The notes: generated by a model from the sequence alone, not told the origin. DNA of 64,000 nucleotides from Candidatus Omnitrophota bacterium (GCA_028870995.1 JAGWOI010000002.1:110463-174462), one strand, 5' to 3'. Shown: positions 36,001-62,313, counted from the first letter of the stretch. Translations and numbers: made by a program.

Positions 36001-39000
36001 AGGGACGGGCGGCGCTGGGAGTGTTTGTGCAATTGGTTAAAGAGAAGGCTCTTGAGCCCAGGGTCCGGATTTCTTATCTGAGGGAGGCCTATTTATCGGC
36101 GGATGATGCCTTAAGGATAAGTTTTGACCGCCGGGTGAGCGCTGCCTTTGAAAAAGAACCTTTGGCTGCTGCGGAGCCGGGAACCCTGGTGGACATCTAC
36201 AGCCCCAAGGTCGTGGTGGAGATTAAATTTAAAGAGGAGCTTCCAGAGTGGGTTTCTTCGCAAATAACACGGCCGTTAAATTTAGCGCCCCAAGAAGTGC
36301 ATAAATTTTTGGACGCGGTGAGAAAATTACGCGCAGATCCTGCGCCGCTCGCCCTGCTCCTTCCCACTGCAGAGAATAAGAGCGATCTGGCTGTCCTGCT
36401 GTCCTTAAAGGATTCAAGGGCCCTGCTCGAGTTTTTATACGAGAAAGCCCGTCAAGAGAGGGACATCATCATGAGGGAAGGGTCATCGGGCCTTGCCCTG
36501 CGCCACACGGAGGCTTTCGACGGAAAAAAATGGGTTGTGACCACACCCGCGCAGCGGCTGGCGATGATGTATGAAATGGACAGGTGGAACGATCCTGTGG
36601 AGGACCACGTCCAATGGCAGATGAATGTCTTTGGCCCCATTCTTGATGAATGGGCGGAAGGCAAATTCGGCAGCCGCGGAGAAGGAAATTTTGCCGAACT
36701 CATGACCCTGGGAACAAGATGGACTCCGGAGATCAGCGGTCAAATGATAAGGCTGCAGGAGCTTTTGGAGAAGGCCGTAGAGGCGGATGAAGCGCAGAGA
36801 CGGAGATTCGAAGATTTGCTGGCCTATGTGCAATTAGAACGCAAACAAGGGGACGGCTTCCTCGATCTCGATGATCCCGCAGCCAGATTCGATGAAGAGC
36901 TGGATATTTCCGTGGCGGCGGACAGGGTTTTAGAAAGTTTTCTGGCCTCTGTCCAAAACCCTCACGCCATCGGAGAGGTTGTGGACATATATGATGAAAT
37001 TGATTTCATGAACCACCCGTCCTTGCGCGCCTATATCCAAAAACTTGTCAGTGGCGCCTTACAATTGACCCGGCGGCGTCCTGGGCGAGCCCCAATACAT
37101 CCGTCTGACAGCAAAGACCATGCCGCCAATGGTGCGACCCGAACACAAGTTGTCAAAGAATTGATGCGGTTGAGGGGGCTGCCGCCGGGCTGGAGGTGGA
37201 ACAAAATACCTTCAGGCGGCAAGGAAATCGACAAGGGCGTCAAGCTGTACCTGCAGTTGACCGGGAAAAAACGATTGGCCCCTTCCTGTGAAGTCATTTT
37301 TCTGCGCGCGCCTCCCCAAAGCCGTTACAGAGCATTTTGGCTGGACGAATTCCCCGGGCATATCGATATTTATTTAAGGCAGGACGCCACCGGCTGGGAC
37401 GTGGCCCACGAATTACTGGCGGCCTTTGAGAACACCACCCACTCACAAAATGAATTCTTCTGCAACGATGGCCATTCGATGGCATATCGGCGGCTTGTCT
37501 TTGATATCCTTCGTCCGTATGTATCCCGCTGTCCCGTTGATCACAGTGCCGCAACAATTGAACTCCAACTCAATACACTCAAGATGCAGGCCAAGGCTTT
37601 GCTGGCGCATCGTGAAAATCCCGGCAACGAGCACTGGAGCAAATTTTTACTGGCGGTGACCCAATATCTCAGGACTGATCCATATGATTTTGTTCTCTAT
37701 CTGATGCAGAAAGATCCCCAGCAGGCATTGTCGGGGAAAGCCGGGGATACGCCCAAGGTATTTTTGGCAAGAGTCCTGGCAAATGTCGCTGACAGGCTTG
37801 CTGTTTTGATCGTCCGTTACCGGGACCTGTCAAACCGCTTTCTCTATGGCAGCCTCAAAGCGGAAGAGAAAGAACACCTTTTCAGCCTGGCCGCAAACAT
37901 CCTTGATTATGCACCGCCAACGGAAGAGGAAACTCCTGTCCCAGAGGCCTTTCAGGTCCCATCCAAGGCACAGATTCAGGGGGCGGCTGTAAAGCTAGAA
38001 AAAGAAATATGGGATCTGATGGCCAGGCCGTTGAATGAAAAGGCTTACGGCAGGATGGTCCTCCTTTATCAGCAATCGGAAGAATTGAGAAAGCCGTTGA
38101 AAATGCCGCCGGAGTCTAGGGCGCTGCCTGCCTGGGTCAACATTCGAAAATTGCTAGAGGAAGACGATATCATCCCGGCCCTTGACCTCATGCTTTTGCC
38201 CGAGGCAGCTTTAAGTAAAACCAAAACGCAAAAAATGAAGGCGGTATGGGATGAGGCGGCTGAAAGAGTTATTGCTAAGTCGGATAGCCTGACCAAGGCC
38301 AACCGTAAGAAGGAAGCGCGCGAGATTTTACAAAAGGCAGAACGACTGTTGGTTTCCACCGAAGTTTATCCGGTTTACCAAAATCTTGCCCAAGAACTGC
38401 TTGCTCTCATCAATCAAAAACATCCCAGCGCCTTGAAGGCGCAGAGACTGCTGGAGGAGCACGCCGCTTATTGGTCAGATAACCGTATTGCCAAACAATT
38501 CCTCGAGGCCATGGCCGCCGAACGGCCGTATGGGAACATGGATAAGCTGCCCAAGCAATTGGCCCATATGTCGGGCTACCTGGTGGGGGAATTGGAAGGA
38601 TTAATTGCAGAATATGAGAAACTTTACCGCCCCTTGAGCATGACGCCGGAAAGCCAGAAGCAGTTCAAGATTTGGCAGGCCGAACACCCGGATCCGGGCG
38701 ACGAAGAATTGTGGGAAGAGCTGTACGGCCTGGCCCTGGTGGAAGAAAAAGATCTGCCTTACTCAAGCCGCGATCATTATGAGGTGCTTGAAAAAGTCTT
38801 TGAAACGCATCCCAAGGTTTTGAACGCTCAAACAGGTCAATCAGAGGATTTCGACGAGCAAAAGCACGGCAGGGACCTGGGGGGCGGTATTTATTTGCGG
38901 CTCATGAAGTACAGCATGGCCCATGATAGCGTTCTGCGCCTACTGATGCAGGGAACAAGGGGTCCTGCTTGTTCTCCCGACATCTCGCTGTTCCTTTGGT

Positions 39001-42000
39001 ATGCCCATGAAAGGGGCCTTATAGCCGCCGCTGAAGCCCATGCCGATATTAATTTTGAGGCGATTAAAGGCCGCAACGGATACCTGTCCATGACGACGGG
39101 TGAAGATAAGCAGTGGAAAGCCGGCCGCCCTGCGGTGCCGGATGTGTTGGGAATGTTGTACGACGAACAGGCGCCAACCATCGAGGCGCTTTTGAACAGC
39201 GGGTCGGCATACTTAAGGAGCATCGCCCTGGAGTTTATCGACGAGGCGGTGGTGAAGGAAGAAACTTCCTATGTTAGAGAAGACGGCCGCCGCCGCAGCC
39301 GGCTGTGGGTCTTGTTGAAACACCGCAAGGTGCTGGTTTACGACAACGCCCGCTGGAGGTGGTCCTTTATCCTTTGGGCGCCGCATCCTTTTAAAACCAT
39401 CCGTCAATTATGGCACCAGGCCACCAATAGCCTTAAGGCCTACGGACGGGGCTACCGTTTGAGTCAGGACCATTATCCGGGCCGTCTTGATCTGGCCATC
39501 AAGAGCGGTTTGAGCAAGGCCGTCGAAGGTCATTGGGAATTCGACTGCTCCGCAGTTAAGCGCAGCCGGGTCGATGGCCTCAGCCAGGTTCCCGATGTGC
39601 TGGGCCTGCCTTATGAGGCCCGCCGGCTCCCTGGGGGAAGGGACCTTTTGGCAAAGCAGCCCCTGAATGCCCTCTCGACGATGTTTATTTCGCAGGTCAA
39701 GGTTTTTACGATCATGGGTAAGCCGGGCGGCGGCAAGGGAGAATTGTCCAGGTGGATCATTAAACAGCTCAATGAATTGCTGCCCGAAGGGCGCGGGTAT
39801 GAAACCTTTGTCCTGGGGGATTATTTCAGGGGCATCAAGAGGGTCAAGATGGACCCCGCTTCAGCCAGTGCCCAAGACCTGAAAAAGTATGGGCCCTTTG
39901 TTTCGCTGGTGACTGAAGAGGACCTGGCCCGGATGAAGGAGCGCCAATTGATCAGCGACCAGACGGTCATTAACATCATCACGGCCGTCTTGGAAACAGA
40001 GCCCTATAAGAACGCCTTTGGGTTGTTCCTCGACGGGTTCCCTAGGAATTTGGAGCAGGCCAGGCTTCCTTTGGAGAAAATTACCTGGCGGGGCGCGCCC
40101 CTGGCCATTGATCTATATGTTTATCTGGACATACCTAATGAAAAGAACGCTGTTTTCTATGAACGGGCCAGCCATCGAAAGGCCCAGGCGGTCCTCAACA
40201 ACGAAAAGCCGCGTGAAGATGACGAGCCGGAAACAGTGGCCAAAGGGTTAAAGACCTTTGATGAGGAAACCCGTCCGGGTATCGAGTATGTCTTGACCCA
40301 ATTTGCAGGAAAATCATTTAAGATGCAGGGCACGACGGAAGGGATGCGTGAGGACAGCATTGCCATGGACAGGGTCAATTTCATGGCCGGCTGGGCAGAA
40401 CATTTGGAGCGCCACCACAAGCGCCCCGTTATTCTGGCCCTGCCGTTCTTGCCGGCCATACAACAGGTCATGGACCAGGGATTAAGGACGTCAGATGCCC
40501 GCAGGAATTGGGACGCCATCCGGAGGGCAACGAACCTGGAATTGCGATGGGCTTTTAAGCGGGGCTCTCCCATGCCGGAAGAGGAGTTTATCAAGGCGCA
40601 TCAGGAAGTATTTGATGTGGGCCTTCGCACATGGCGCAAACCCCGTCAGGAGGAGCTTGAGGCGATCAGGCTGATGTACAGGGAAGCTTGCCGTACCTAC
40701 GACAATCATTATTGGGCCTATTTGGGTGACATCGCGCCCGGGCCGGGCTTGGTCGGCTATTTAAGGGAAAAAGGCGGGGAAGCGCATAAGCTGGCGCTTG
40801 TCGAAGCAGGTAAAATATTTTTTAAATTTCAAGCCGAGGCTTGGAAAAACCGGCAGGGCATTTTGGCGCTGCCGCCCATCCCAACGGCGATGAGTGAGGA
40901 ATTCCGGCCGGCAGGGTTAAACTTGTTGGCCCAGCATGCGCAGCTCAAGCCGCAGGCGTTCACTCAAGACTTCATTCATTCGATTCCCTCAAAGCACTGG
41001 CAGCTCTTGGACATTTATTATGGCCTTCATCAGGCGCCTGTCGCTGAGTTAAGAACTATCCATAAAAAATTACGCTCCAAAGGAATGGCTTACGGCAATT
41101 TCCGCTGGATCGCCATGATGCGCCGGTGGGTGGTCAAGAATTTGAAGAAAGTGCGGATCGGCCGTCAACAGCTGGCCTCCTTGCTTAAAACGGATGTTAA
41201 GAAAATCACCGCTGACATGATCGAGGGTTTGCCTGAAACCCATAAGACGGTCATCCGTATTAATTTTGGTATAGGCGTGCACCGGCCTTTGCAAAAAAAT
41301 TTGCTTCAAGAGGTCAGAAAGGCCCTGAAGAACGAAAAACTGACCATTGAGCAGCTGGATACCTTGCGTCAGGAAGCCGTTGAGCGTCTTGACTGGGCTG
41401 TTAGATACGGGCTTCATCAGAAATTTTATAAAAATGCGCCTGCACGGCTGCAAAGGAAAGCTCCGGTCAATAACAGCGGCCTGGAAGTACTGGCCTACGA
41501 TTTAAATATATCCGCAGTGCCATTGACCGAAGAAGTTTTACAGCAGCGGTTGAATATGATCGCTCCCAGGGCCAGGGAAGCGGTGGTCCAATATTATTGT
41601 TTGGACGGCCGGCAGCGGACATTGATGCAGATAAGCCGTCATATGGCATCTAAACGGTTCCGGGACCTGCGCAGCAATCCGTCGGCACTGACGATTCCGA
41701 ATCTGAGCCTTTTGGTCAAAAATGCGGTGAACCACATGAGGCGTTATAAGGGAGGGTTTGACTGGCTGACCCAGGAACTTAGGCTTACTCCTGAAAGGGT
41801 GCGGTCCAATTGGATGAAACTTGCCATCCATGAGGCGGCGGCATTGATTCTGCATTACGGGATCGGCACACCGCGGTTGGCGGATGATGCAGCCATAGCC
41901 GCTTTCTTTGAAAGAAATAAAATATCCGGCCTGCAGCGCACGGTCAGCACGCATGAAATAAGGCACTTGCGCATCAAGGCCAAAGAACGGCTGACCGGTG

Positions 42001-43248: not shown

Positions 43249-43614
43249 ATGAACGAACGCAGGCAATTGCCGCGGTGGGAGATCAAAAAAAGCTCCCGGG
43301 TATGGATGCCGCAGGTGCAAAGCTTCAGTCAAGGGTTTATCGAGGATATGCATTTAAAAGGGATGTGCATATCTTTTGAAAAGCCGGTTTTCCAGCAGGA
43401 AACGGTTAATATTTATTTTACGATCGGTGAAGATAATTTGGATTTGATCAAGGTGGAAGCCCAGGTTCCCTGGACAAAGCAGGAAGCGGACAGGTGTGTT
43501 TACGGGCTGTTTTTTAGCCAGATCCGGGACGATTACAAGGACAGGATCTCCGAATACATTAATACCAATTGTTTTGACCAAATCAGGAATAATTGGTGGC
43601 AGCAGAGCGCCTAG
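43249..43614 (+). CDS. Small PilZ-domain-like protein (121 aa)
   Basis: RBS gaaaggaaggag, 6 nt before the ATG. N-terminal 'RRQLPR' (RxxxR) and 'EDMHLKGMCISF' (degenerate DxSxxG) resemble the two c-di-GMP-binding PilZ motifs. The match is partial. Confidence 0.4.
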   Translation: MNERRQLPRWEIKKSSRVWMPQVQSFSQGFIEDMHLKGMCISFEKPVFQQETVNIYFTIGEDNLDLIKVEAQVPWTKQEADRCVYGLFFSQIRDDYKDRISEYINTNCFDQIRNNWWQQSA

Positions 43615-50900: not shown

Positions 50901-51779
50901 TTGTGTCCTTCGTCTTCCTCGAGTATATTGCCATTTATGCTTAAAATCTTTCGCAGCATTTTGATCGGCCTCCTGGTCGTCGCCTGGGTGGCCCCCGGGG
51001 AAGGTTTGGCTTATCACCGCCTGGCGTTCCGCCGCCACGGCCCGTACCATCTGACCGCCAATACGGCGCTTTTGTGGGACCCCGCCCGCAATCAAAATTA
51101 CTTCGCGCAAGGCGCGGATCGGGAGGTTTATCCCGCCTCCACGACCAAGGTGTTGACCGCGATCCTTGTTTTAGAGAATCTTCCTTTGGACAAGCAAGTG
51201 ACGGTGCCGGCGCAGGCGGCTTTGATGCCGCAGACAAAGCTTGGTTTGAGGCCCGGCGAAGTCTGGCGGGTCAGGGATTTGCTTTACGGCATGCTGCTTC
51301 ATTCGGCCAACGACGCCGCCGTGACCCTGGCCGTGGCCGTGGCCGGGTCCCAGGAAAAATTCGTCGATATGATGAATGCCCGCGCCAGGCAGCTGGGGGC
51401 CCTGCACAGCCATTTCGCCAATCCTGACGGCTTGCCGTCCACCGGCCCGCAATTCACCACAGCGGCCGACATGAGCCGGATATTCCTCCAGGCCCTCAAG
51501 AATGATTTTTTCCGGCAAGCCCTCACCTATAAGTACATGACCATCTCTTCCGTTGCAGGCCGGCGTCTTTTTCTGAAATCGTTCAACAAGACCTTGTTTT
51601 TTAGCTGGAGACGGCAGGTGTTCGGTAAAACCGGGTATACTAGAGAGGCCCGGTATTGTTTTGTCGGCTATATCCCAAGGGGGAAGGAAGACATGCTGGT
51701 TATAGCGGTTTATGGATGCCGCCGCCGCTGGACGGACATGAAGTATATCATTGAACATTACGGCCATATTATGTTATGA
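50901..51779 (+). CDS. D-alanyl-D-alanine carboxypeptidase (peptidase S11, DacA-like)
   Basis: SxxK 'ASTTKVLTA', SxN 'HSANDAA', and a signal/TM 'ILIGLLVVAWVAPG'. Likely start is the ATG at 50938 (MLKIFRS...). Confidence 0.8.
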   Translation: MCPSSSSSILPFMLKIFRSILIGLLVVAWVAPGEGLAYHRLAFRRHGPYHLTANTALLWDPARNQNYFAQGADREVYPASTTKVLTAILVLENLPLDKQVTVPAQAALMPQTKLGLRPGEVWRVRDLLYGMLLHSANDAAVTLAVAVAGSQEKFVDMMNARARQLGALHSHFANPDGLPSTGPQFTTAADMSRIFLQALKNDFFRQALTYKYMTISSVAGRRLFLKSFNKTLFFSWRRQVFGKTGYTREARYCFVGYIPRGKEDMLVIAVYGCRRRWTDMKYIIEHYGHIML

Positions 51780-51807
51780 TTTGAATATTCACTCACGGAG
51801 GGTTCTT

Positions 51808-52620
51808 ATGGAAAATAAAAATGACGTTATTGCCATTCTCTTGGTTGTTCTGATCGCCGTTATCGCCATGGTCGGTATCCAAGTCAGCGTTAAAAACGGC
51901 GTCCAGGTCGCCCTTTCTCCCGTAAAACAGCAGCTTGACGGTATCGGGAAACAGGAAAGGAATATCTTAAACCAATTGAACGGCATTCATAGGGAACTGA
52001 ATCAGATGAGAAACAAGGTCAATTCCATGGGCAACGGCGTCCCTCGATTCCAGCCGCAGCCTCAACTGCCGCCCCCGGAAGACATGAATAAGGTTTATAA
52101 CATCCCGGTTGGCGACTCCGCCGTGCTGGGCAACAAGAATGCGCCCGTAACCATCACGGAGTTTTCGGATTTTCAATGCCCGTTCTGCGCCCGTTTCTAT
52201 CCGGTCATCAAGCAGGTATTAGCGGCTTATCCGGATAAAGTCAGGGTTGTTATCAAGAATTTTCCGCTGGCGTTTCATCCTAATGCCCTTCCGGCTGCTA
52301 AGCTGGCCATGGCAGCCAATGAGCAGGGCAAGTTCCAGGGGATGATGGAGTCTCTGCTCGCCAATGGCGGGGACGTATCCGACGCCAAGATCAAGGAATA
52401 CGCCCAGAATTTGGGGCTGAATTACAACAAGCTGATGGCGGATTATAAAAATCAGGACGCGCGCTGGACAAAACAGATCGACGATGACCTGAAGCTTGGC
52501 GCTGATGTGGATGTGCGCGGTACCCCGACATTTTATCTTGACGGCCGCAAGACCAATGCCAGGGACTTGGAAAGTTTTAAAGCCCAGATAGATCCCATCC
52601 TGGCAAACAAAAATAAATAG
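51808..52620 (+). CDS. DsbA-family thiol:disulfide oxidoreductase (membrane-anchored, thioredoxin fold)
   Basis: RBS cacggaggg. N-terminal TM 'VIAILLVVLIAVIAMVG'. Coiled segment. Thioredoxin active site 'FSDFQCPFCARF'. The track ORF starts at 51751, but the ATG at 51808 with its RBS is preferred. Confidence 0.8.
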   Translation: MENKNDVIAILLVVLIAVIAMVGIQVSVKNGVQVALSPVKQQLDGIGKQERNILNQLNGIHRELNQMRNKVNSMGNGVPRFQPQPQLPPPEDMNKVYNIPVGDSAVLGNKNAPVTITEFSDFQCPFCARFYPVIKQVLAAYPDKVRVVIKNFPLAFHPNALPAAKLAMAANEQGKFQGMMESLLANGGDVSDAKIKEYAQNLGLNYNKLMADYKNQDARWTKQIDDDLKLGADVDVRGTPTFYLDGRKTNARDLESFKAQIDPILANKNK

Positions 52621-52647
52621 CGTGTACACCGCCCAAAGAGACACAAA

Positions 52648-52678
52648 GGGGACACTTTAAAGTGTCCCCTTTTTTTTA
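52648..52678 (+). terminator. Rho-independent terminator after the dsbA-like gene
   Basis: Perfect 22-nt palindrome ggggacacttt|aaagtgtcccc followed by an 8-T run (52670-52678). Confidence 0.8.
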
Positions 52679-52700: not shown

Positions 52701-55043
52701 ATGGCTGACGAGCAGTACGAGTTAAATATCATTTTACCGGTATTTAACGAAGCCAGGAATATCGAGGGCGTTCTTCGAGACGCCTGCGCGTTCATCCGGC
52801 GTGAGGGGACCAGGGCCCGTATTATCGTGATAGACGATGGCAGCAGCGACGCCACACCGCAGGTCCTGGAAGCGGCGGCCCTCTCCTGCCCGTACCTGCA
52901 GGTGATAAGACACCTTGAAAACCAGGGATACGGCGCCGCCTTGAGAAGCGGCATCAAAGCCGCCCAAGGCCGGTGGGTCCTTTTGATGGATGCCGACGGC
53001 CAGTTTGAGACAGGTTCCCTGAAAGACATCTGGCCCTGCAGGGCCCGGGCTGATTTTTGGCTGGGATACCGCAGGCAAAGGAAGGACAGTCTCTACAGAA
53101 AGTTTCTGGGCAGAGTCGGGAATGGGCTGGCTTCAGTCTTTTTGGGCCGTTCCATCCGCGACGTTAACTGCGGTTTTAAATTGTTTAAAAGGGAGCTTGT
53201 CCAAGACCTGGACCTGGCAGTCGAGGGCGGGGCCGTCAATTTCGAGATCCTGCAAAAGCTTTTTAAGACCCACCCTTCGGCGGTCATGCGGCAATTTGCG
53301 GTGACGCATCATCCCCGCCATTCAGGACTGTCCACCGGAGGCCGCCCGCAGGTCATTTTTAAGATCATCAAGGAGGGGGCGGGCATGCTGTTAAAAGAGA
53401 AGGGGATGGTTTTGGAGGGCCTCATTTTGATGGTCCTGCTCGCGGTACTGGCCGAGATTTCTTACAGCCATGCCGGAGAGGGGATTTCTGTTGTCAAATA
53501 TCATCTGCAATGGGGATCGGTCAATTTGTTGAAGAACTACGCCTTGTACCAGCATTCCTTTAGGGATTTTATATACCGCGGCTGTGCTTTTCATCAGGGC
53601 AATTCCGAAGCAGAATGGCGGACCGCGTTCTACCTGCTGCCGCTTTTCATTTTTTGCAGCTTTCTTGGGGGCTTGAGCCTCAAGACCATGTGCTGTTTTA
53701 CCATCACCGTTTCCCTTGTGACCCTGGTTTTGTTTTATGCCTGGGTCAGGACAATCTGGGGCAGGCAGGCCGCTTTTTTTGCCGCCCTGCTTTTCGGCTT
53801 TTCCGCGGTGTTCCAGGAGATCGCTAGGTCCGGCAGTTATGAGGCCTACAGCCTTATGGCGGCCATGGTCTGGATACTATATTTTTTCCGCATGAGCGCC
53901 TCCCCAAGCCCTGCCGGTTATCTAGGATTCGGCCTGATCACGGGATGGACATGGTACGGCTATGGCATCCTAAGGTGCCTGACGCCGGCAGCCCTGATTC
54001 AACTGCTGTCATTTAAGGATGAAAAGAAATGGAGATCGGTTGCGCTTTTTTTATCAGGCATGCTGGTTGTCATCGTACCGGGATTTTTGGTGATGTTAAG
54101 GATTTATCATAATGAGATCCCGCAGCGTCCTTTCAGTAGGTTGTTCTTTGACAGGGAAAACATCCACCGCTTTAAAGAGCTTGTGCTAAACCTCCAGTCC
54201 TTTGCCGGCTGCATGCTGGGCAGGGACCATTATATCGAACCTTTTGTCCGCGACACCTTCCATGCCCATTTTTGGAGCCCGTGGCTGGTTGTTCCCCTGG
54301 TGATGGGCATGGCAGCGGCCTTCAGGCAGCGCCGCCAGGCGGCCGGCCGGTCATTGCTGATATTGAGCGCCGTCATTTATCTGACCATGCCGCTGCTGAC
54401 ATCCCACATCGGTTATTGGCAGGCCAGGCGGTCACTGCTGTATGTTTTGCCCTCCTATTGCTTTATAGGGCTGGGGATGAAGCAGATTTTCGACGGGATA
54501 ATTCGCGTCGGCGGCCGGATCAAATGGACGGGAACCATTATTTTGGCCGGTGCCCTTGGCCTTATTCTTATATCAGAGGGAGGTATACTTCGCGGGCGCA
54601 TTCTGACGCGGCAGGACATAGGCCTTTTGCCTTTGGCCGAAAAGATCAGGGAGATGGGCCTTGAGGGTGATTTGTATTATGTGGAAAGAAAAAACCCCGG
54701 GTATTACACCAAGATGGGCGATGTGAGCATGGCTAGAGGAATAAATTCTTTATATGAGGCGGACTTTGAAAGCGATGTATTGAGCCTGGCGTTGATGGAT
54801 CACGGACAAACCCTGCCCACGGTCCGCGGTTTGGGCGTCAAAAGCCCTTTGCCTGCCGCCGCCCCTGCCCATTTTTATATTGTGCAAAGCCCCCTGGTCG
54901 CCGGGAATGAGTTTGAGCGCTGGTGTTCACGCAACCGGATCAGGCACCGCCTTATATTTGAACTTAAGCCGGTTGACCTGCCCCGGGGAGAAGCCCGGCT
55001 GGTCTGCGGCCCTTTCAAGCTTTTTGACGCCATCCGTGGGTGA
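52701..55043 (+). CDS. Fusion of a GT2 (polyprenyl-phosphate glycosyltransferase, DPM1/GtrB-like) domain to a large polytopic membrane domain (~12 TM). Possibly GT-C-like.
   Basis: N-terminal 'LNIILPVFNEARNIEGVL', 'IIVIDDGSSDATPQVL', 'LENQGYGAALRSGIKAA', 'LLMDADGQF' and 'NCGFKLFKREL' are classic GT2 motifs. After aa ~240 come about 12 hydrophobic helices. The N-terminus is paralogous to the GT2 gene at 58980..59690. Confidence 0.8.
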   Translation: MADEQYELNIILPVFNEARNIEGVLRDACAFIRREGTRARIIVIDDGSSDATPQVLEAAALSCPYLQVIRHLENQGYGAALRSGIKAAQGRWVLLMDADGQFETGSLKDIWPCRARADFWLGYRRQRKDSLYRKFLGRVGNGLASVFLGRSIRDVNCGFKLFKRELVQDLDLAVEGGAVNFEILQKLFKTHPSAVMRQFAVTHHPRHSGLSTGGRPQVIFKIIKEGAGMLLKEKGMVLEGLILMVLLAVLAEISYSHAGEGISVVKYHLQWGSVNLLKNYALYQHSFRDFIYRGCAFHQGNSEAEWRTAFYLLPLFIFCSFLGGLSLKTMCCFTITVSLVTLVLFYAWVRTIWGRQAAFFAALLFGFSAVFQEIARSGSYEAYSLMAAMVWILYFFRMSASPSPAGYLGFGLITGWTWYGYGILRCLTPAALIQLLSFKDEKKWRSVALFLSGMLVVIVPGFLVMLRIYHNEIPQRPFSRLFFDRENIHRFKELVLNLQSFAGCMLGRDHYIEPFVRDTFHAHFWSPWLVVPLVMGMAAAFRQRRQAAGRSLLILSAVIYLTMPLLTSHIGYWQARRSLLYVLPSYCFIGLGMKQIFDGIIRVGGRIKWTGTIILAGALGLILISEGGILRGRILTRQDIGLLPLAEKIREMGLEGDLYYVERKNPGYYTKMGDVSMARGINSLYEADFESDVLSLALMDHGQTLPTVRGLGVKSPLPAAAPAHFYIVQSPLVAGNEFERWCSRNRIRHRLIFELKPVDLPRGEARLVCGPFKLFDAIRG

Positions 55044-55123
55044 TCCCCAAGAATTTTCCTTTGCAAAAAAAACATTTTAGTGTATAGTGTAGCCTCTTTG
55101 AAGAAAGGGAGGTTTTTAAACAT

Positions 55124-55369
55124 ATGGGTGGTCGCGTAGGTGGAATTACAAGTAAATATTATTACGAAACCGCAGGCATCAAGGTCTCTGGGGGCCAGAA
55201 GGTCAAAGCCGGGACTATTTTGACCCGTCAAGGCAACCAGTGGAAACCCGGCCTTAACGTGATCGGCCGCAGTTCATTGACGGCTGCGTGCGATGGCGAA
55301 GTTTATTTTACCCGCCGTAAAAACAGTTATAACAAGGTCATCACGCTCATTAACGTTAAGCCTTCGTAA
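55124..55369 (+). CDS. rpmA: Ribosomal protein L27-like protein (divergent N-terminus)
   Basis: RBS aagggagg. 'GIKVSGGQKVKAGTILTRQGNQWKPGLNVIGRSSLTAACDGEVYF' aligns with L27 '...[48 protein letters not shown]'. It lacks the conserved AHKK N-terminus, and no L21 gene lies upstream. Confidence 0.55.
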   Translation: MGGRVGGITSKYYYETAGIKVSGGQKVKAGTILTRQGNQWKPGLNVIGRSSLTAACDGEVYFTRRKNSYNKVITLINVKPS

Positions 55370-55399
55370 ACGTTCGTCTACTTCAAGAATCAAATACCT

Positions 55400-57229
55400 A
55401 TGTGCGGGATTGTCGGCTACGTCGGAAATAAGGACGCTGTGCCCATATTGCTCGAGAGCCTCAAAAAACTCGAGTACCGCGGGTATGACTCCAGCGGTGT
55501 GGGGTTTTTAGACCATGATGCCCGGCTGATCGTCCATAAATCCAAGGGCAAGATCCGCAATTTGGAAGAGTTGCTGGCAAGCCACACCCTGCCTCTGGCC
55601 CATGCCGGCATTTCGCATACCCGCTGGGCCACCCACGGCCTTCCCTGCGACACCAATGCCCATCCGCATACAGACAGCAAACATACCATTGCCGTTGTTC
55701 ATAACGGTATCATTGAGAATTATCAGGAACTCAAAGCGGAATTAAAGAAAAAAGGCTGCCACTTTACCTCCGAGACGGATTCGGAAGTCGTACCTCAGCT
55801 GATCGCCCATTTCTATAAAGGGGACTTGCTGGCCGCCGTGCGTCAGGCCATTGCCAAATTAAAAGGCACCTTTGCCTTGGGGATCATCAGCCGGGAGCAT
55901 CACGGCTTGCTGATCGCCGCGCGCGTGGGGTCGCCGCTGATCGTCGGCATCGGGGACAACGAGAATTTTATTGCTTCGGACGTGCCGGCCATCCTGGAGT
56001 TTACCCGCCGGGTGATTTACCTGAAAGACCGCCAGATCGCGGTCTTGACCAAGGACAAGGCGGAAGTCTACAGCTTTGAAGGCAAAAAAGCCACCCCCGT
56101 CATCGACACGGTTTCCTTTAACGTGACCGCGGCCCGTAAGGACGGCTTCGCACACTTTATGCTCAAGGAGATCCATGAGCAGCCGGAAGTGCTTGCACAG
56201 ATGCTGGCCCTGCGGTTGAAGAACAAGCAGCTATCGCTGGAAGGTCTTCAGCTTCCTGATGCTGTGTTAAAGCGGACGGCGAAGGTTGTGGTGGTGGCTT
56301 GCGGCACCGCCTATCATGCAGGCCTTGTGGGTAAATATATCATCGAGACCCTGGCGCGCCTCCCGGTCGAATGCGACACCTCCAGTGAATTCCGTTACCG
56401 TAACCCCATCATCGACAAGAACACCCTGGTCATTGCCGTCAGCCAGTCAGGGGAGACCGCGGATACCCTGGCGGCCGTGCGTGAAGCGCGCGCGAAGGGT
56501 GCTAAAGTGATTGCCATTTGCAACGTGGTGGGATCGTCTCTGGCACGCGAGTCCGACAGTATTCTGTACACCTATGCCGGCCAGGAGATCGGGGTTGCGT
56601 CCACCAAGGCCTATACCGCCCAACTGATGATGTTTTACCTGCTGGCCTTGAAATTGGCCCAGGTGCGCAAGACCTTAAAACCTCAAGAGTGGAAAAGTTT
56701 GGTCAATCATTTGGTGCGCGTACCGTCCTTATACAAGACCATCTTGAAGGGTATCCACCATATTCAAAAGGTGGCGGAGGCCAACTCGCATTTTGGCTGT
56801 TTCCTGTTCTTAGGCCGTCATGTGAATTTTCCCTCGGCCTTGGAAGGCGCCTTGAAGCTCAAGGAAATTTCCTACGTCCCGGCGGAAGGCTACGCGGCCG
56901 GCGAGATGAAGCACGGCCCCATCGCCTTGATCGATGAATACCGTGCCGTGGTATGCATCAATCCCAAATCCCATGTCCATGAAAAGATGTTTTCCAACAT
57001 CCAGGAGATCAAGGCCAGGCGCGGCAACATCATCGCGATTGTCACCAAGGGCGATAAGGAAATCAAATCCCATGCCGACTTTACCATCGAAATGCCGGAC
57101 ATCCCCGAGCTTTTAAGCCCGCTTTTGGCGGCGTTACCGCTGCAGATGCTGGCCTATTTCATTGCCGTCAAACGCGGCTGCGATGTGGACCAACCGCGTA
57201 ACCTGGCGAAATCTGTGACGGTGGAATAA
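55400..57229 (+). CDS. glmS: Glutamine--fructose-6-phosphate aminotransferase (isomerising) GlmS
   Basis: 'MCGIVGYVG' Ntn-amidotransferase start. Two SIS domains. C-terminal '...AKSVTVE'. Full length at 609 aa. Confidence 0.95.
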   Translation: MCGIVGYVGNKDAVPILLESLKKLEYRGYDSSGVGFLDHDARLIVHKSKGKIRNLEELLASHTLPLAHAGISHTRWATHGLPCDTNAHPHTDSKHTIAVVHNGIIENYQELKAELKKKGCHFTSETDSEVVPQLIAHFYKGDLLAAVRQAIAKLKGTFALGIISREHHGLLIAARVGSPLIVGIGDNENFIASDVPAILEFTRRVIYLKDRQIAVLTKDKAEVYSFEGKKATPVIDTVSFNVTAARKDGFAHFMLKEIHEQPEVLAQMLALRLKNKQLSLEGLQLPDAVLKRTAKVVVVACGTAYHAGLVGKYIIETLARLPVECDTSSEFRYRNPIIDKNTLVIAVSQSGETADTLAAVREARAKGAKVIAICNVVGSSLARESDSILYTYAGQEIGVASTKAYTAQLMMFYLLALKLAQVRKTLKPQEWKSLVNHLVRVPSLYKTILKGIHHIQKVAEANSHFGCFLFLGRHVNFPSALEGALKLKEISYVPAEGYAAGEMKHGPIALIDEYRAVVCINPKSHVHEKMFSNIQEIKARRGNIIAIVTKGDKEIKSHADFTIEMPDIPELLSPLLAALPLQMLAYFIAVKRGCDVDQPRNLAKSVTVE

Positions 57230-57234
57230 ACAGG

Positions 57235-57256
57235 AAAAAGGGGACTGTCCCTTTTT
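57235..57256 (+). terminator. Terminator-like hairpin after glmS, directly abutting the rsmI start codon
   Basis: aaaaaggggactgtcccttttt: stem AAAAGGGGA/UCCCUUUUU with a U-run. Shares the GGGGAC...GUCCC core with the terminator at 52648. Confidence 0.5.
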
Positions 57257-57916
57257 ATGCTTTATATTGTTTCTACTCCCATCGGCAACCTTAAGGACAT
57301 CACTTTAAGGGCCATCGAAACCCTTAAATCCGTTGACCTGATCGCCGCCGAAGACACCCGCCACACCAAGATCCTTCTTGATACCCATCAAATCCAAAAA
57401 CCCCTGACCTCCTTTTTTGAACACAATCAGCTTAAGAAAGCCGCACAGCTGATCGGCCTGCTCAAGGAAGGCAAGGCCGTTGCCCTGGTCACGGATGCCG
57501 GCACACCGGGCATCAGCGATCCTGGTTTTTCGCTGGTTCGCCTGGCCATGGAGAATGCTATTCCCATTACCGTCGTTCCCGGCGTCAGCGCCTGTGTTGC
57601 GGCCTTGACAGCATCAGGCTTGCCGTCGCACCGTTTCCTTTTCGAGGGGTTCCTGCCGCCCAAAAGCGGCAGCCGGCGCAATAAGCTGCTGGCTTTAAAA
57701 GATTTTGAGGGAACGGTTGTCTTTTATGAATCGCCCCACCGCCTGTTGAAGACGCTGGAGGATATGCGCCAGGTTTGGGATGACCCGGTCATCGTCGTGG
57801 CCCGCGAGCTTACCAAGAAATTTGAAGAGATCCGCCGGGACAAAGCCAGCGGCCTGCTGGAACATTTTCATGCCCATCCGCCCAAAGGCGAATTTGTTTT
57901 GTTGAGAAACGCCTAA
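57257..57916 (+). CDS. rsmI: 16S rRNA (cytidine1402-2'-O)-methyltransferase RsmI
   Basis: 'MLYIVSTPIGNLKDITLRAIETLKSVDLIAAEDTRHTKILL' is the canonical RsmI tetrapyrrole-methylase-fold N-terminus. Confidence 0.9.
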   Translation: MLYIVSTPIGNLKDITLRAIETLKSVDLIAAEDTRHTKILLDTHQIQKPLTSFFEHNQLKKAAQLIGLLKEGKAVALVTDAGTPGISDPGFSLVRLAMENAIPITVVPGVSACVAALTASGLPSHRFLFEGFLPPKSGSRRNKLLALKDFEGTVVFYESPHRLLKTLEDMRQVWDDPVIVVARELTKKFEEIRRDKASGLLEHFHAHPPKGEFVLLRNA

Positions 57917-57929
57917 GGCTCCTGCCCGA

Positions 57930-58421
57930 TCAATAACTGCACAAGACTGAGGAGTAAACGTTGGTGGTGGCCGAAGATTGGAAGGAGTCCACAAGGTCAG
58001 AGTTGCTTACGCTGCTGCTGGTGCCGCCGCCGGTTGTTAAATATGCATACCCGGTCGGGAGAGTGGTGGGCAGGCAGCTAAGGTTGCCTGGGGTGGGGGT
58101 ACAATCGGAAGAACACGAAAACGGGGAGATGTTCCCTGTGCAGAAATAGTTATAACATTGCTGGGGATAAATGCTGGGCGTGCCGCCTTTACAGACATAG
58201 ATCGTTCCCGACGTGTCCGCGAAAAGCATGCCGTCGGGATTGCCGGTACAGGCATTGGAAACATTGGGAGCCGGAAAGGTATGGGATAATTTGATCATTT
58301 GATAATTCGATGAGGGCGCGGGATAGTAGGTGGTCAATTGGGTGGATCCTGTGCCGGCAAACGCAAAACCGGCAGGTGTAATGCCTAAACCGAGAATAAC
58401 AACCAGGGCGTATTTTTTCAT
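57930..58421 (-). CDS. Secreted Cys-rich protein, paralog family member P1 (163 aa)
   Basis: Signal peptide 'MKKYALVVILGLGITPAGFAFA'. Conserved motif 'TYYPAPSSNYQMIKLS' shared with the ORFs at 58418..58882 and 60094..62304. Ten Cys residues. Confidence 0.65.
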   Translation of the reverse strand: MKKYALVVILGLGITPAGFAFAGTGSTQLTTYYPAPSSNYQMIKLSHTFPAPNVSNACTGNPDGMLFADTSGTIYVCKGGTPSIYPQQCYNYFCTGNISPFSCSSDCTPTPGNLSCLPTTLPTGYAYLTTGGGTSSSVSNSDLVDSFQSSATTNVYSSVLCSY

Positions 58422-58882
58422 GGTTTCACCGTTGAGCCGGAAGTGCAGCAGACGATGGAATAAATATTGGTGCCATTCGATGTGAAGGTGTCGTAGTTAT
58501 TTGATGCTCCATTGATGCTTGCCAGGGCAAATCCTGTGGGGCACGGATTAGGAGAACCGGTGGTAAATTTACTGTTGCAGCTGGCATCAGTACTGGAGCA
58601 ATACCGGTTAAAACAAGTTTCATTGTAAGGAACAGACACATGGCTTGCCCCGTTGGAGGCGCATAAAATCAAGTCGGATCCATTTTGGTAAACAACGCCT
58701 TTATTGGTAGCTGACGTGCAGTCTGGTGCCGATGGGGGAGCAGACAGGGTGAGCTTGTTGTAGCTGCCCACTGGAGCAGGGTAATTGGTATTATAGATCA
58801 AATTGCCGGCAAGGGCATCGGCCGCAGCTGTGCAAAGGCACAGGATCAAGGCAAGCGAGAAGTTTTTTATAGTCCAAAACAT
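58418..58882 (-). CDS. Secreted Cys-rich protein, paralog family member P2 (154 aa)
   Basis: Signal peptide 'MFWTIKNFSLALILCLCTAAADALA'. Motif 'TNYPAPVGSYNKLTLS'. Its stop overlaps the P1 start (ATGA), implying a co-operon. Confidence 0.65.
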   Translation of the reverse strand: MFWTIKNFSLALILCLCTAAADALAGNLIYNTNYPAPVGSYNKLTLSAPPSAPDCTSATNKGVVYQNGSDLILCASNGASHVSVPYNETCFNRYCSSTDASCNSKFTTGSPNPCPTGFALASINGASNNYDTFTSNGTNIYSIVCCTSGSTVKP

Positions 58883-58979
58883 GCCAATTTAAATATATAT
58901 CATCCTATCACCCCGCGCAACCCAAATTCCGGGTATTAGGTTTATTTTTAATAAAAATTAAATATAATAAGAAGCGTTG

Positions 58980-59690
58980 ATGGACAACCCCAAAGATAAT
59001 GAGCTAAGCATCGTCCTGCCGGTCTTCAATGAGGAGGATGTCATTGAAAGAACCATCCGGGAGATAGAAGCCTACACCCTTCGTTTTATAGGTAAGGCGG
59101 AAATTATTGCTGTCAATGACGGCAGCACCGACGGCACCGCGAAGGTTCTGGATAGGTTAAGCCGCACGCTGCCTAATTTGAAAGTAGTCACGCACGAGCA
59201 GAATAGAGGATATGGGGGCGCTCTTTATTCCGGCATTAAAGCGGTGAGCAGTCACTGGATGCTGCTGATGGACCCGGATGGACAATTCCATATTGATTCA
59301 TTAAATGAGATATGGCCGCATAGACATGATCACGAAGTGCTGTTAGGGTACCGGCAAAAAAGAGGGGACAACCTGTACCGGGTTGCCCTGGGCAGGTTGT
59401 CCAACACCATTTTAAATTCATTTTTGAGCCGCCATATAAACGATCTCGATTGCGGTTTTAAAATTTTTAAGAGCGACCTTATCCGGGAAGTGCCTTTATC
59501 GTCAAGAGGCGGAGCAATCAACTTTGAAATAATCCACTATCTCCTAAGAAAATTTCCATCCATTAAGATTTATCAATATCCGGTAAGGCATTATCCTCGC
59601 GAAACGGGCAAGGCCAAAGGAGGTACGCCTAAAAAAATATTGAGGATGGCTTTCGAGGGTTTAAGGATCGTTTTTAGAACAAGAGGCTAG
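58980..59690 (+). CDS. GT2 polyprenyl-phosphate glycosyltransferase (GtrB/DPM1-like), stand-alone
   Basis: 'LSIVLPVFNEEDVIERTI', 'IIAVNDGSTDGTAKVL', 'HEQNRGYGGALYSGIKAV', 'LLMDPDGQF' and 'DCGFKIFKSDL'. Paralog of the N-terminal domain of 52701..55043. The track starts at a TTG (58977); the ATG at 58980 is preferred. Confidence 0.85.
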   Translation: MDNPKDNELSIVLPVFNEEDVIERTIREIEAYTLRFIGKAEIIAVNDGSTDGTAKVLDRLSRTLPNLKVVTHEQNRGYGGALYSGIKAVSSHWMLLMDPDGQFHIDSLNEIWPHRHDHEVLLGYRQKRGDNLYRVALGRLSNTILNSFLSRHINDLDCGFKIFKSDLIREVPLSSRGGAINFEIIHYLLRKFPSIKIYQYPVRHYPRETGKAKGGTPKKILRMAFEGLRIVFRTRG

Positions 59691-59697
59691 GGGGCTC

Positions 59698-59970
59698 ATG
59701 TATTTCTACAATTTTCATATTGATGCTTGGACAATCATAGGCCTGGCCGGCCAATTTTTGTTTTTCCTGAGTTTTGCGGTTCAATGGTACCGCTCCGAAC
59801 AGGCCAAGCGCAGCATCCTGCCCCAAGAATTTTGGCTGTTGCGATTGATTGCGTCATTGCTTTTGATCGCATATGTCCTGCATCGACGGGATATTGTCTT
59901 TTTAATAGCCGCCATTCTTCAAATTATTTTTTATTTGAGGAATATTATTTTGATAAAAGGGCAGGAGTAA
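59698..59970 (+). CDS. Small membrane protein with lipid-A-biosynthesis N-terminal (LAB_N)-like domain, GT2-associated
   Basis: RBS gggggctc. 'WTIIGLAGQFLFFLSFAVQWYRSEQAKRSILPQEFWLLRLIASLLLIAYVLHRRDIVFLIAAI' matches the W..IG..GQ..F..RF..QW..SE..K.S..P..FW..SL.G..LL..Y...R.D.V consensus. This family is typically encoded next to GT2 polyprenyl-P glycosyltransferases. Confidence 0.6.
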   Translation: MYFYNFHIDAWTIIGLAGQFLFFLSFAVQWYRSEQAKRSILPQEFWLLRLIASLLLIAYVLHRRDIVFLIAAILQIIFYLRNIILIKGQE

Positions 59971-60093
59971 CGCCTCATTATTTCCCCGCAAGGCCCGCAA
60001 TGCAATAATACCCGCCTTTTAGAAGTTAATTCAGCTGTATTTTTCTTGAAATTTAAGAACAACAGAGGAAGGTTTTAAGAAAATTTTGGATTG

Positions 60094-62313
<2,220 letters not shown>

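Follow-up and report, generated by a model that had tools for sequence, protein, structure and literature searches.

The 64,000-nt stretch of Candidatus Omnitrophota DNA analysed here (GCA_028870995.1 JAGWOI010000002.1:110463-174462; "the window" means this whole stretch) carries, in its last quarter, genes of glycosyltransferase (GT) family 2 (GT2) close to genes of secreted cysteine-rich and collagen-like proteins, named P1, P2 and P3. This arrangement raises the question of whether the locus encodes a glycosylation system and, if so, whether its acceptors are the proteins encoded beside it. Two gene modules are concerned. The first is a fusion gene (52701..55043, plus strand), in which a GT2 domain is joined to a membrane domain of the GT-C type. 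The second consists of a stand-alone GT2 paralog, GT2b (58977..59690, plus strand, 237 aa; the start chosen by NCBI is the ATG at 58980), and a 90-aa LAB_N protein (59698..59970, plus strand), whose gene starts 7 nt 3' of GT2b. Our results suggest that the locus encodes components for glycosylation in the periplasm, with a polyprenyl-phosphate-linked sugar as donor and the three-component logic of the Gtr, Arn and Pgf systems. We assign this reading a probability of roughly 0.6.

The fusion gene is a single uninterrupted open reading frame (ORF) of 780 aa. Its product is public as MDE2221720.1, annotated 'glycosyltransferase', from a Candidatus Omnitrophota metagenome-assembled genome (MAG), where it lies on a 191-kb contig. 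Three parts can be distinguished, all on the plus strand: a GT2 domain (aa 1-235, 52701..53405; Pfam PF00535), a polytopic domain of GT-C fold (aa 236-630, 53406..54590; Pfam PMT_2, AlphaFold2 (AF2) and Foldseek) and a C-terminal soluble alpha/beta domain (aa 631-780, 54591..55043; AF2 secondary structure). A sequence-only reading of the window had proposed a GT2 fused to a domain with about 12 transmembrane (TM) helices at 52701..55043, together with a second GT2 paralog and a LAB_N partner at 58980..59970. Both proposals hold: the ORF is intact, hydropathy reveals at least nine strong hydrophobic segments in aa 234-630 and the AF2 model has about 11-13 helices, while GT2b and the GT2 domain of the fusion share 45% identity (E 2e-76) and the small protein matches PF07578 (77.2 bits, cut-off 26.7, E 1e-21).

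Which reaction might the two GT2s catalyse? The Glycos_transf_2 model (PF00535) matches the fused domain over aa 10-169 (E 1.3e-24) as well as GT2b (E 6e-27), and in their alignment the end of the fused domain coincides exactly with that of its paralog. The closest solved relatives are three ArnC structures (ArnC E 8e-15), the Pyrococcus DPMS and GtrB. The NCBIfam matches are ArnC, PpgS, PgfS, AglJ and a haloarchaeal dolichyl-phosphate hexose transferase, and the earlier assignment of both proteins to the polyprenyl-phosphate type agrees with these relatives. All NCBIfam matches lie far below the equivalog cut-offs, therefore the sugar cannot be named from them. The D-x-D motif reads DAD in the fused domain (aa 97-99) and DPD in GT2b. 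In the acceptor-loop region, 'RDVNCGFKLFKR' aligns with 'GDYGCMLRAYRR' of ArnC, following the pattern 'D..C(G/M)..(F/Y).R'. Hydropathy analysis found no hydrophobic segment in GT2b and none in the fused GT2 before TM1 of the GT-C domain, the C-terminal end of this GT2 being an amphipathic helix. Both GT2s thus lack the C-terminal TM helices of the GtrB/ArnC subclass and resemble the TM-less DPM1/Ppm1-D2 subclass. Judged by sequence, they look like cytoplasmic polyprenyl-phosphate sugar synthases.

The membrane part of the fusion is of the GT-C glycosyltransferase type, neither an acyltransferase nor a flippase. The sequence-only reading had left room for either of the latter and had proposed a search among GT-C families, which gave a clear answer. 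PMT_2, which we take to be the Pfam family covering ArnT-like enzymes, matches aa 326-459 with 33.2 bits (gathering cut-off 26.1). The AF2 model of the domain (predicted local distance difference test (pLDDT) 80.6, predicted template modelling score (pTM) 0.83; built on a 17-sequence alignment) ends, after its helices, in some 150 aa that form a soluble alpha/beta domain. When this model was compared with the PDB by Foldseek, GT-C enzymes occupied all of the top 30 places (E 1e-7 to 1e-2, TM-score about 0.5), among them yeast and human STT3, ArnT, ALG9/ALG12, AglB, PglB, AftD, AftA and Pmt4; for STT3, ArnT, ALG9/12, AglB, PglB and AftD the E-values were 1e-7 to 1e-4. ArnT had the best target-normalised TM-score among the highest-ranked matches (0.51); that of ALG12, at rank 13, was 0.55. 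The GT-C_A architecture is present, with 11-13 TM helices, a long first external loop (EL1) and a C-terminal soluble domain (AF2, hydropathy). The profile of the family found nothing among PDB sequences even at E 10, so it is Pfam and the fold that support its homology to solved GT-C enzymes.

A protein search yielded 16 homologs of this domain, about 40% identical and 465-572 aa long, whose named sources are Omnitrophota; among them, the family so far comes from Omnitrophota-type genomes and metagenomes only. PMT_2 is matched at E <=0.01 by 13 of the 17 family members. The family motifs are FQEIARSGSY (with the invariant Glu373), LFFDRE and RRSLLYxxPxY, and polar residues are conserved at Glu373, Asp484, Asn497, Arg504, His521, Arg576/Arg577 and Tyr581 (numbered as in the fusion), the last of these within RRSLLYxxP. 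A local hhalign comparison with ArnT-like sequences (E 5e-4, probability 30%) placed RRSLLYxxP on KLPGY(345)IVP of ArnT, where Tyr345 is presumably in contact with undecaprenyl phosphate. The comparison covered ArnT residues 28-369, rebuilt from a printed alignment, and was bridged via ArnC-ArnT-like fusion proteins. The Tyr345-like motif alone aligns convincingly; ArnT residues D55, K85, D158 and R270 could not be mapped on the GT-C domain. A global hhalign to ArnT was meaningless (probability 0.3%) and was discarded. As for other GT-C families, the lack of a MIR domain and of a DE motif conserved in EL1 argues against GT39 (PMT), and PF02366 was not matched either. GT66 (STT3/PglB/AglB) is argued against by the missing WWDxG motif, since direct reading found WWD nowhere in the 780-aa fusion; here the likeness is one of fold only. 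Together with the weak relationship to ArnT, these comparisons yielded no assignment of the domain to a specific CAZy family.

The C-terminal soluble domain has no Pfam match and is kept in the stand-alone homologs. It is predicted to be periplasmic because of the odd TM count and the cytoplasmic N-terminus, and might possibly be the acceptor-binding part.

The catalytic residue of the membrane domain proved harder to trace. The sequence-only reading had expected a conserved Asp or Glu in a periplasmic loop, and none was identified in the first such loop across the 17-member family: the best EL1 candidates occur in only 7-13 of the 17 members. An EL1 'SE' motif and a D/E following SGSY had been considered as a co-varying pair, which turned out to mark one clade (7 of 17 members) and to be a phylogenetic signal. 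If the domain had no activity of its own, it could be an inactive anchor or activator of a GT2 that lacks TM helices, the sugar then being used by GT-C enzymes encoded elsewhere. The absence of an invariant acidic residue from the first periplasmic loop fits this explanation, as does the absence of a TM helix from both GT2s, and simple TM counting suggests that FQEIARSGSY, the strongest family motif, may face the cytoplasm. On the other hand, the family retains the full GT-C architecture including the conserved C-terminal domain, and its loops predicted to be periplasmic keep more invariant polar positions (D484, N497, R504, H521, R576/R577, Y581) than an anchor should require. RRSLLYxxP aligns with the Tyr345-bearing motif of ArnT, and two of the five stand-alone GT-C homologs examined in their genomic context have no adjoining GT2 that they could anchor. 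We therefore regard an inactive membrane domain as quite improbable.

The same gene contexts bear on the meaning of the fusion. All 16 homologs from the protein search are stand-alone proteins, which start at the position equivalent to an internal ATG of the fusion ORF (Met229), and the closest relative from the genome scan (L005, 54% identity) is unfused as well; the fusion is so far unique within its GT-C family. The internal ATG is in frame, preceded by AGGAGG at a spacing of 8 nt (53371..53387, plus strand), and located just 5' of TM1. It is probably the old GT-C start, present as a relic or as an alternative start. In three of the five contexts, the gene beside the stand-alone GT-C encodes a GT2 from the subfamily of the two window GT2s, with which it shares 41-49% identity. 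It follows the GT-C gene in two of them and precedes it, with a 4-nt overlap, in the third (L002). The fused GT2 shares 41-45% identity with the GT2s adjoining stand-alone GT-Cs in L001 and L002, and GT2b shares 49% with the one in L001. As the order in L002, GT2 and then GT-C, is that of the fusion, the latter can be seen as preserving a gene pair, and these neighbourhoods argue that GT2 and GT-C are functionally coupled.

It might be objected that the fusion is an artefact of assembly or sequencing, a single indel having joined two overlapping genes that are in fact separate, as in L002. The junction is indeed covered by one assembly only (a second MAG of the same organism covers just the last 224 aa), the stand-alone state is found in 16 of 16 homologs and in L005, a good Shine-Dalgarno sequence and ATG lie inside the ORF just upstream of TM1, and the two genes of L002 overlap by 4 nt. 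However, the ORF is uninterrupted, its GT2 part stops exactly where GT2b stops, and neither a homopolymer run nor an ambiguous base is found at the junction. GT2-GT-C fusions are also common in other lineages, where ArnC-ArnT-like, GT2-YfhO and triple GT2-GtrA-PMT_2 fusions occur; the protein P0017, for example, matches both ArnC and ArnT (E 8e-32 to ArnT). An artefact thus seems very unlikely, and even if real it would alter the layout of the locus and not its function.

Gene neighbourhoods and fusions suggest that the LAB_N protein may flip the lipid-linked sugar or act as the membrane partner of a GT2. In all four independent lineages in which its cluster was found (window/L010, L011, L012-L014, L023) LAB_N adjoins a GT2, and three of these clusters also hold GT-C genes: DUF2079 in L011, PMT_2 in L012, and three PMT_2-like genes together with DUF2079 in L023. 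In L011, LAB_N closes a DUF2079-GT2-LAB_N operon whose GT2 has two TM helices of its own, therefore LAB_N is not simply an anchor. An exhaustive HMMER search with LAB_N gave 1,601 cluster representatives. Among the best 150 of these, 30 are single repeats (about 90-130 aa) and 107 have 135-299 aa, most of the latter with two LAB_N repeats (the two-repeat forms measuring about 200-240 aa). All nine proteins of at least 500 aa in this set are tandem LAB_N repeats fused to another enzyme: GT87 in four cases, PMT_2/PMT in three, a lipid A acyltransferase in one and LpxB in one. Seven of the nine are thus fused to GT87 or PMT-type GT-C enzymes, and because such enzymes need no anchor, LAB_N may have a role in handling the lipid-linked donor.

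In Pfam, LAB_N is grouped with SWEET and PQ-loop transporters as a member of the MtN3-like clan (PMC4499210). One LAB_N member also matches the MtN3_slv model, and the window protein has three helices in its AF2 model, which rests on a shallow alignment of 3 sequences. No flippase of the GtrA, SMR (ArnE/F) or MATE type was found among the window ORFs at 43-64 kb (Pfam/NCBIfam). We tentatively propose that LAB_N could flip or deliver polyprenyl-phosphate sugars in the manner of a SemiSWEET, as the third component long looked for in many GT2/GT-C systems, and would here serve O-glycosylation of the P proteins; this is possible rather than probable. A literature search on PF07578 and the LAB_N name found no functional report. 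Bordetella LgmD was considered as a possible LAB_N protein; the literature gave only the existence and dispensability of lgmD, and we make no claim about it.

What are the acceptors of such a system? P1 (57930..58421) and P2 (58418..58882), both on the minus strand, are secreted Cys-rich proteins according to their translations, and they are paralogous to the N-terminal part of P3 (60094..62304, minus strand), in which a secreted Cys-rich domain is followed by collagen-like repeats. P3 matches Pfam Collagen with E 3e-58 and contains about 430 aa of GNT/GAT repeats, with 24% Thr and 107 GxT triplets. P1 and P2 are candidate acceptors, and the Thr-rich repeats of P3 are plausible sites of O-glycosylation.

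P2 is divergent from GT2b-LAB_N, with a 94-nt spacer between them. LAB_N homologs with 65-69% identity occur in two other lineages, both with LAB_N-GT2 divergent from a P-type gene, so that a P gene lies divergent from the LAB_N/GT2 operon in three lineages (window, L012, L023). In L012/L013 a P3-like gene and LAB_N-GT2 are followed by a 468-aa PMT_2 GT-C. L023 contains a DUF2079 GT-C, a P2-like gene, LAB_N-GT2, an ICMT-like protein, PA14 proteins and three PMT_2-type GT-C genes. In L015, genes for DsbA, P2-like and P1-like proteins precede a DUF2079 gene, whose product is 50% identical to the DUF2079 GT-C beside the P genes of L023. In total, LAB_N-GT2 and/or a GT-C adjoin the P genes in four of the five informative lineages (window, L012/L013, L023, L015), the exception being L016. 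The GT2s of L012 and L023 are 70% identical to each other and 26-30% identical to the window GT2s.

The sequence-only reading had described a glycosylation locus around the collagen-like genes. Its enzymes are confirmed as to type, and the association with the P genes is probably correct; the opposite pattern, GT genes missing wherever P homologs occur, was seen in L016 and not in the other four lineages. We consider the link of the GT modules to the P genes supported by these neighbourhoods, and not obligatory.

The exception L016 also shows how the locus was built. This metagenome contig comes from a close relative (GlmS 83%, MutS 79%, RsmI 83% and L27 89% identical) and has the order MutS, a 284-aa hypothetical protein, SixA, lipoprotein, TrmB, Dac, DsbA, L27, GlmS, RsmI and P1-, P2- and P3-like genes. 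It has neither the fusion gene nor GT2b-LAB_N, the window order being otherwise kept. A conserved L27 promoter region ('ttttcctttgcaaaaaaa…gtgtata') directly follows the DsbA stop codon in L016 and the stop codon of the fusion gene in the window. As this region adjoins DsbA in the relative, about 2.4 kb, comprising a hairpin and the fusion gene, would have been inserted. The hairpin (52645..52672, plus strand) is terminator-like, with a perfect 12-bp stem followed by a T run, and lies between the DsbA-like and fusion genes; it is missing from the equivalent DsbA-L27 spacer of L016 and forms the upstream boundary of the insertion. The second module, GT2b-LAB_N, occupies the gap between P2 and P3, a spacer of 23 nt in L016. 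Two further relatives, L020 and L022, cover only the GlmS-RsmI-P-gene stretch (L022 through PyrR) and contain no homolog of the window GT2, GT-C or LAB_N genes. On this comparison, the two GT modules look like two cassette insertions into a housekeeping backbone, flanking the genes P1-P3.

This has consequences for the neighbours of the modules. The glmS gene (55400..57229; SIS and GATase domains in Pfam) is present as the sequence-only reading had noted, and the supply of UDP-N-acetylglucosamine to the system, for which that reading had enlisted it, is rejected as its role here: glmS has the same position in relatives without GT modules. The genes glmS, L27 and rsmI are bystanders. The DsbA-like thioredoxin (51751..52620, plus strand; Pfam Thioredoxin_4 and DSBA, with an N-terminal membrane anchor) likewise counts as backbone, not as part of the glycosylation system. 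Genes of this type adjoin the Cys-rich P genes in the window, in L015 (1257..2102) and in L016 (8515..9342). This neighbourhood in three lineages suggests a dedicated oxidative-folding partner, and the DsbA-like protein probably serves disulfide formation in the P family.

Taken together, these observations allow us to propose how the system could work. By homology, the fused GT2 and/or GT2b would load a sugar from a nucleotide sugar onto undecaprenyl phosphate at the cytoplasmic face of the membrane, one GT2 being tethered by its fusion to the GT-C domain and the other encoded beside LAB_N. The lipid-linked sugar would then be brought to the outer leaflet, for which a LAB_N dimer, by analogy with SemiSWEET, appears the best candidate in view of its gene context and fusions. 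The GT-C domain, whose fold is modelled, would next pass the sugar to the acceptor with the help of the C-terminal periplasmic domain. The likeliest acceptors, as conserved neighbourhoods suggest, would be the adjacent P1, P2 and P3, in a manner resembling Pgf of S. mutans. The sequence-only reading had seen the fusion as a complete system in one protein that makes the lipid-linked sugar and transfers it. This is not supported, because its two catalytic domains work on opposite faces of the membrane and it contains no flippase part; flipping is more likely carried out by LAB_N.

Several points weigh against this proposal. With regard to the enzymes, the activity of the GT-C family members is predicted, from sequence and fold, no conserved acidic residue is recognisable in their first external loop, and the profile alignment to ArnT is weak. 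As to LAB_N, its fold search was insignificant (Foldseek E 5.7-7.3 for SWEET/SemiSWEET, with SemiSWEET at 7.3). Its fusions to LpxB and to a lipid A acyltransferase also speak against a flippase, since these enzymes act cytoplasmically and need none; they fit a broader role in binding or presenting lipid substrates. In the locus itself, a promoter/terminator scan gave no sign of co-transcription of the two modules, which are separated by housekeeping genes. In relatives, the P1/P2/P3-like genes of L016 have no GT genes within 15.6 kb, the GT-Cs near P genes elsewhere (generic PMT_2, DUF2079) belong to families other than that of the window, and the nearest stand-alone homologs of the window GT-C (L001-L004) have no P genes nearby.

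Alternatively, the same machinery might modify an envelope lipid or glycan, either lipid A or the lipopolysaccharide (LPS) core in the manner of ArnC/ArnT or a polysaccharide in the manner of Gtr, and its proximity to P1-P3 might be incidental or only regulatory. ArnC provides the best solved sequence relatives of the GT2s, ArnT is among the top fold matches of the GT-C domain, LAB_N is fused in other bacteria to enzymes of lipid A synthesis, and stand-alone GT-C homologs occur away from P genes, near genes for a monogalactosyldiacylglycerol (MGDG)-synthase-like protein and a lipid A acyltransferase; L016, in turn, has P genes with no GT genes alongside. Against this stands the fact that ORF annotation and Pfam detected in the window neither a deacetylase nor a formyltransferase, nor any further accessory gene of the Arn/Lgm type, and that the key residues of ArnT, save the Tyr345-like motif, cannot be mapped. 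Moreover, the LAB_N orthologs with at least 65% identity all adjoin P-type genes, and glycosylation genes recur beside P genes in four of five lineages. For these reasons we think an envelope acceptor rather unlikely, although it is the most serious competitor, and prefer glycosylation of the P proteins.

The rest of the region can be described briefly. The fusion gene and the GT2b-LAB_N module are 3.9 kb apart, with L27-GlmS-RsmI-P1-P2 in between, so that the order 3' of the fusion gene is L27-like, GlmS, RsmI, P1-P2 (minus), GT2b, LAB_N and P3 (minus); another small secreted protein and then PyrR follow beyond P3. In the last 21 kb of the window, the genes 5' of the DsbA-like gene begin with the end of a 14,397-aa ORF, a PilZ gene and MutL and MutS (minus). 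A 284-aa hypothetical protein, a SixA-like phosphatase, a DUF3192 lipoprotein, TrmB and a D-Ala-D-Ala carboxypeptidase are encoded between MutS and the DsbA-like gene. No sigma-70-like promoter was found by scanning between the hairpin at 52645..52672 and the start of the fusion gene 28 nt downstream of it.

Some of these neighbours deserve a comment of their own. The giant ORF (39..43232, plus strand) is uninterrupted and takes up two thirds of the window; the next gene (43249..43614) encodes a small protein with a PilZ domain. A very large ORF (>2,656 aa) likewise precedes the GT2/GT-C pair of L002. The 81-aa protein named 'L27' by NCBI (55124..55369) scores 27.8 bits against the L27 equivalog model, whose cut-off is 90.35. 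The L016 counterpart is 89% identical, a conserved promoter-like region belongs to the gene itself, and the N-terminus of the protein appears divergent from what we take to be canonical L27.

The P proteins share a further feature, a motif (T)TxYP[AS]PxGxYxxxxL located after the signal peptide of P1, P2 and P3 (58330..58350, 58780..58800 and 62200..62230). Otherwise unrelated secreted proteins in L017, L020/L021, L024 and L025, at least some of them from Omnitrophota relatives, begin with 'GQTTLTTYYP[AS]PSGNY', and in one of these (L020, 281..1138) such an N-terminus is combined with a C-terminal Peptidase_S74 domain (endosialidase-chaperone, tail-fibre-like). This motif may serve as a signal for sorting or anchoring. 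In L016, the P3 counterpart has a GTT-rich tail at its end. Several ORFs of 445-465 aa that overlap P3 on both strands (60075..61472) are by-products of its repeats (PATPAT…, VLPVLP…) and were rejected as genes. In L023 (4577..7617, minus strand), genes for two proteins with PA14, a carbohydrate-binding domain, alternate with those of the GT-Cs on the 3' side of LAB_N-GT2; these proteins may be further substrates or lectin-like partners. The 397-aa membrane protein of the same locus gave only a weak ICMT-like match.

Glycosylation outside the cytoplasm with single lipid-linked sugars is widespread and underlies O-antigen seroconversion, lipid A modification and the glycosylation of teichoic acids and, at O-positions, of proteins. 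Known three-component systems include GtrA/GtrB/GtrC of Shigella and Salmonella, CsbB/GtcA/YfhO of Firmicutes and the pentofuranose systems (Kelly et al. 2024, PMC11127046). The window locus resembles the Gtr type in having a GT2 predicted to load undecaprenyl phosphate, a GT-C predicted to act outside the cytoplasm and a small membrane protein alongside. It differs in that LAB_N, a 3-TM protein of the MtN3-like clan, takes the place of the GtrA, SMR or MATE flippase, in its GT2-GT-C fusion, two GT2 paralogs and two cassettes 3.9 kb apart, and, compared with GtrB, in GT2s devoid of C-terminal TM helices.

The closest parallel as to acceptors is the Pgf system of S. mutans, in which PgfS (GT-A), PgfE and PgfM1/PgfM2 (GT-C) are encoded with cnaB-cbpA-cnm and the adhesins are glycosylated (PMC12041528). 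In both cases GT2 and GT-C genes lie beside genes of secreted, Ser/Thr-rich, collagen-related proteins, which are O-glycosylated in Pgf and are candidates here, and the PgfS model recognises GT2b at E 2e-15, with a score well short of its equivalog cut-off. Unlike Pgf, the window locus belongs to a Gram-negative-type Omnitrophota host, has no epimerase and has a GT-C of a different family.

From the Arn pathway, the system would share a GT2 whose nearest solved structures are ArnC, a GT-C domain that passes the PMT_2 threshold and has ArnT (5EZM) as a top fold match, a C-terminal periplasmic domain of similar size and a motif resembling the surroundings of Tyr345. Here, too, the differences are considerable: identity to ArnT is about 12%, genes for ArnA, ArnB and ArnD are absent, lipid A is not indicated as an acceptor, and LAB_N stands where the Arn pathway has the SMR-type ArnE/F flippase. 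The order GT2 then GT-C in one polypeptide is also that of P0017, P0023 and P0028 (about 760-830 aa) and of the triple fusions P0026 and P0039. However, the ArnC-ArnT-like fusions are clear ArnT relatives (E 8e-32 to 5EZM) with a D/E-E motif in loop 1, whereas the window GT-C forms a separate family that is otherwise never fused.

Tethering of a synthase without TM helices has precedents as well. In Ppm1 of M. tuberculosis (Rv2051c), domain D1 anchors the catalytic domain D2, and human DPM1 is anchored by DPM3. The window GT2s resemble these in that one would be tethered by a fused polytopic domain and the other by a small partner, with split and fused versions in related species. The partner domain of Ppm1 is Lnt-like and not a GT-C, and DPM3 is unrelated to LAB_N. 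With SemiSWEET, SWEET and PQ-loop proteins, LAB_N shares the clan, the 3-TM unit and the occurrence in single (about 90 aa) and tandem forms. Unlike in SWEET-type transporters, its proposed substrate is a lipid-linked and not a free sugar.

The locus and the comparative data, in which LAB_N is consistently encoded with polyprenyl-phosphate GT2s, make a role of LAB_N in glycosylation a testable hypothesis, and the locus offers, for Omnitrophota, a candidate pair of enzyme and substrate in protein glycosylation. Set against the systems described above, the kind of system is known, and it is the layout that is new: a GT2-GT-C fusion, a second GT2 with LAB_N, and cassettes placed around the P genes.

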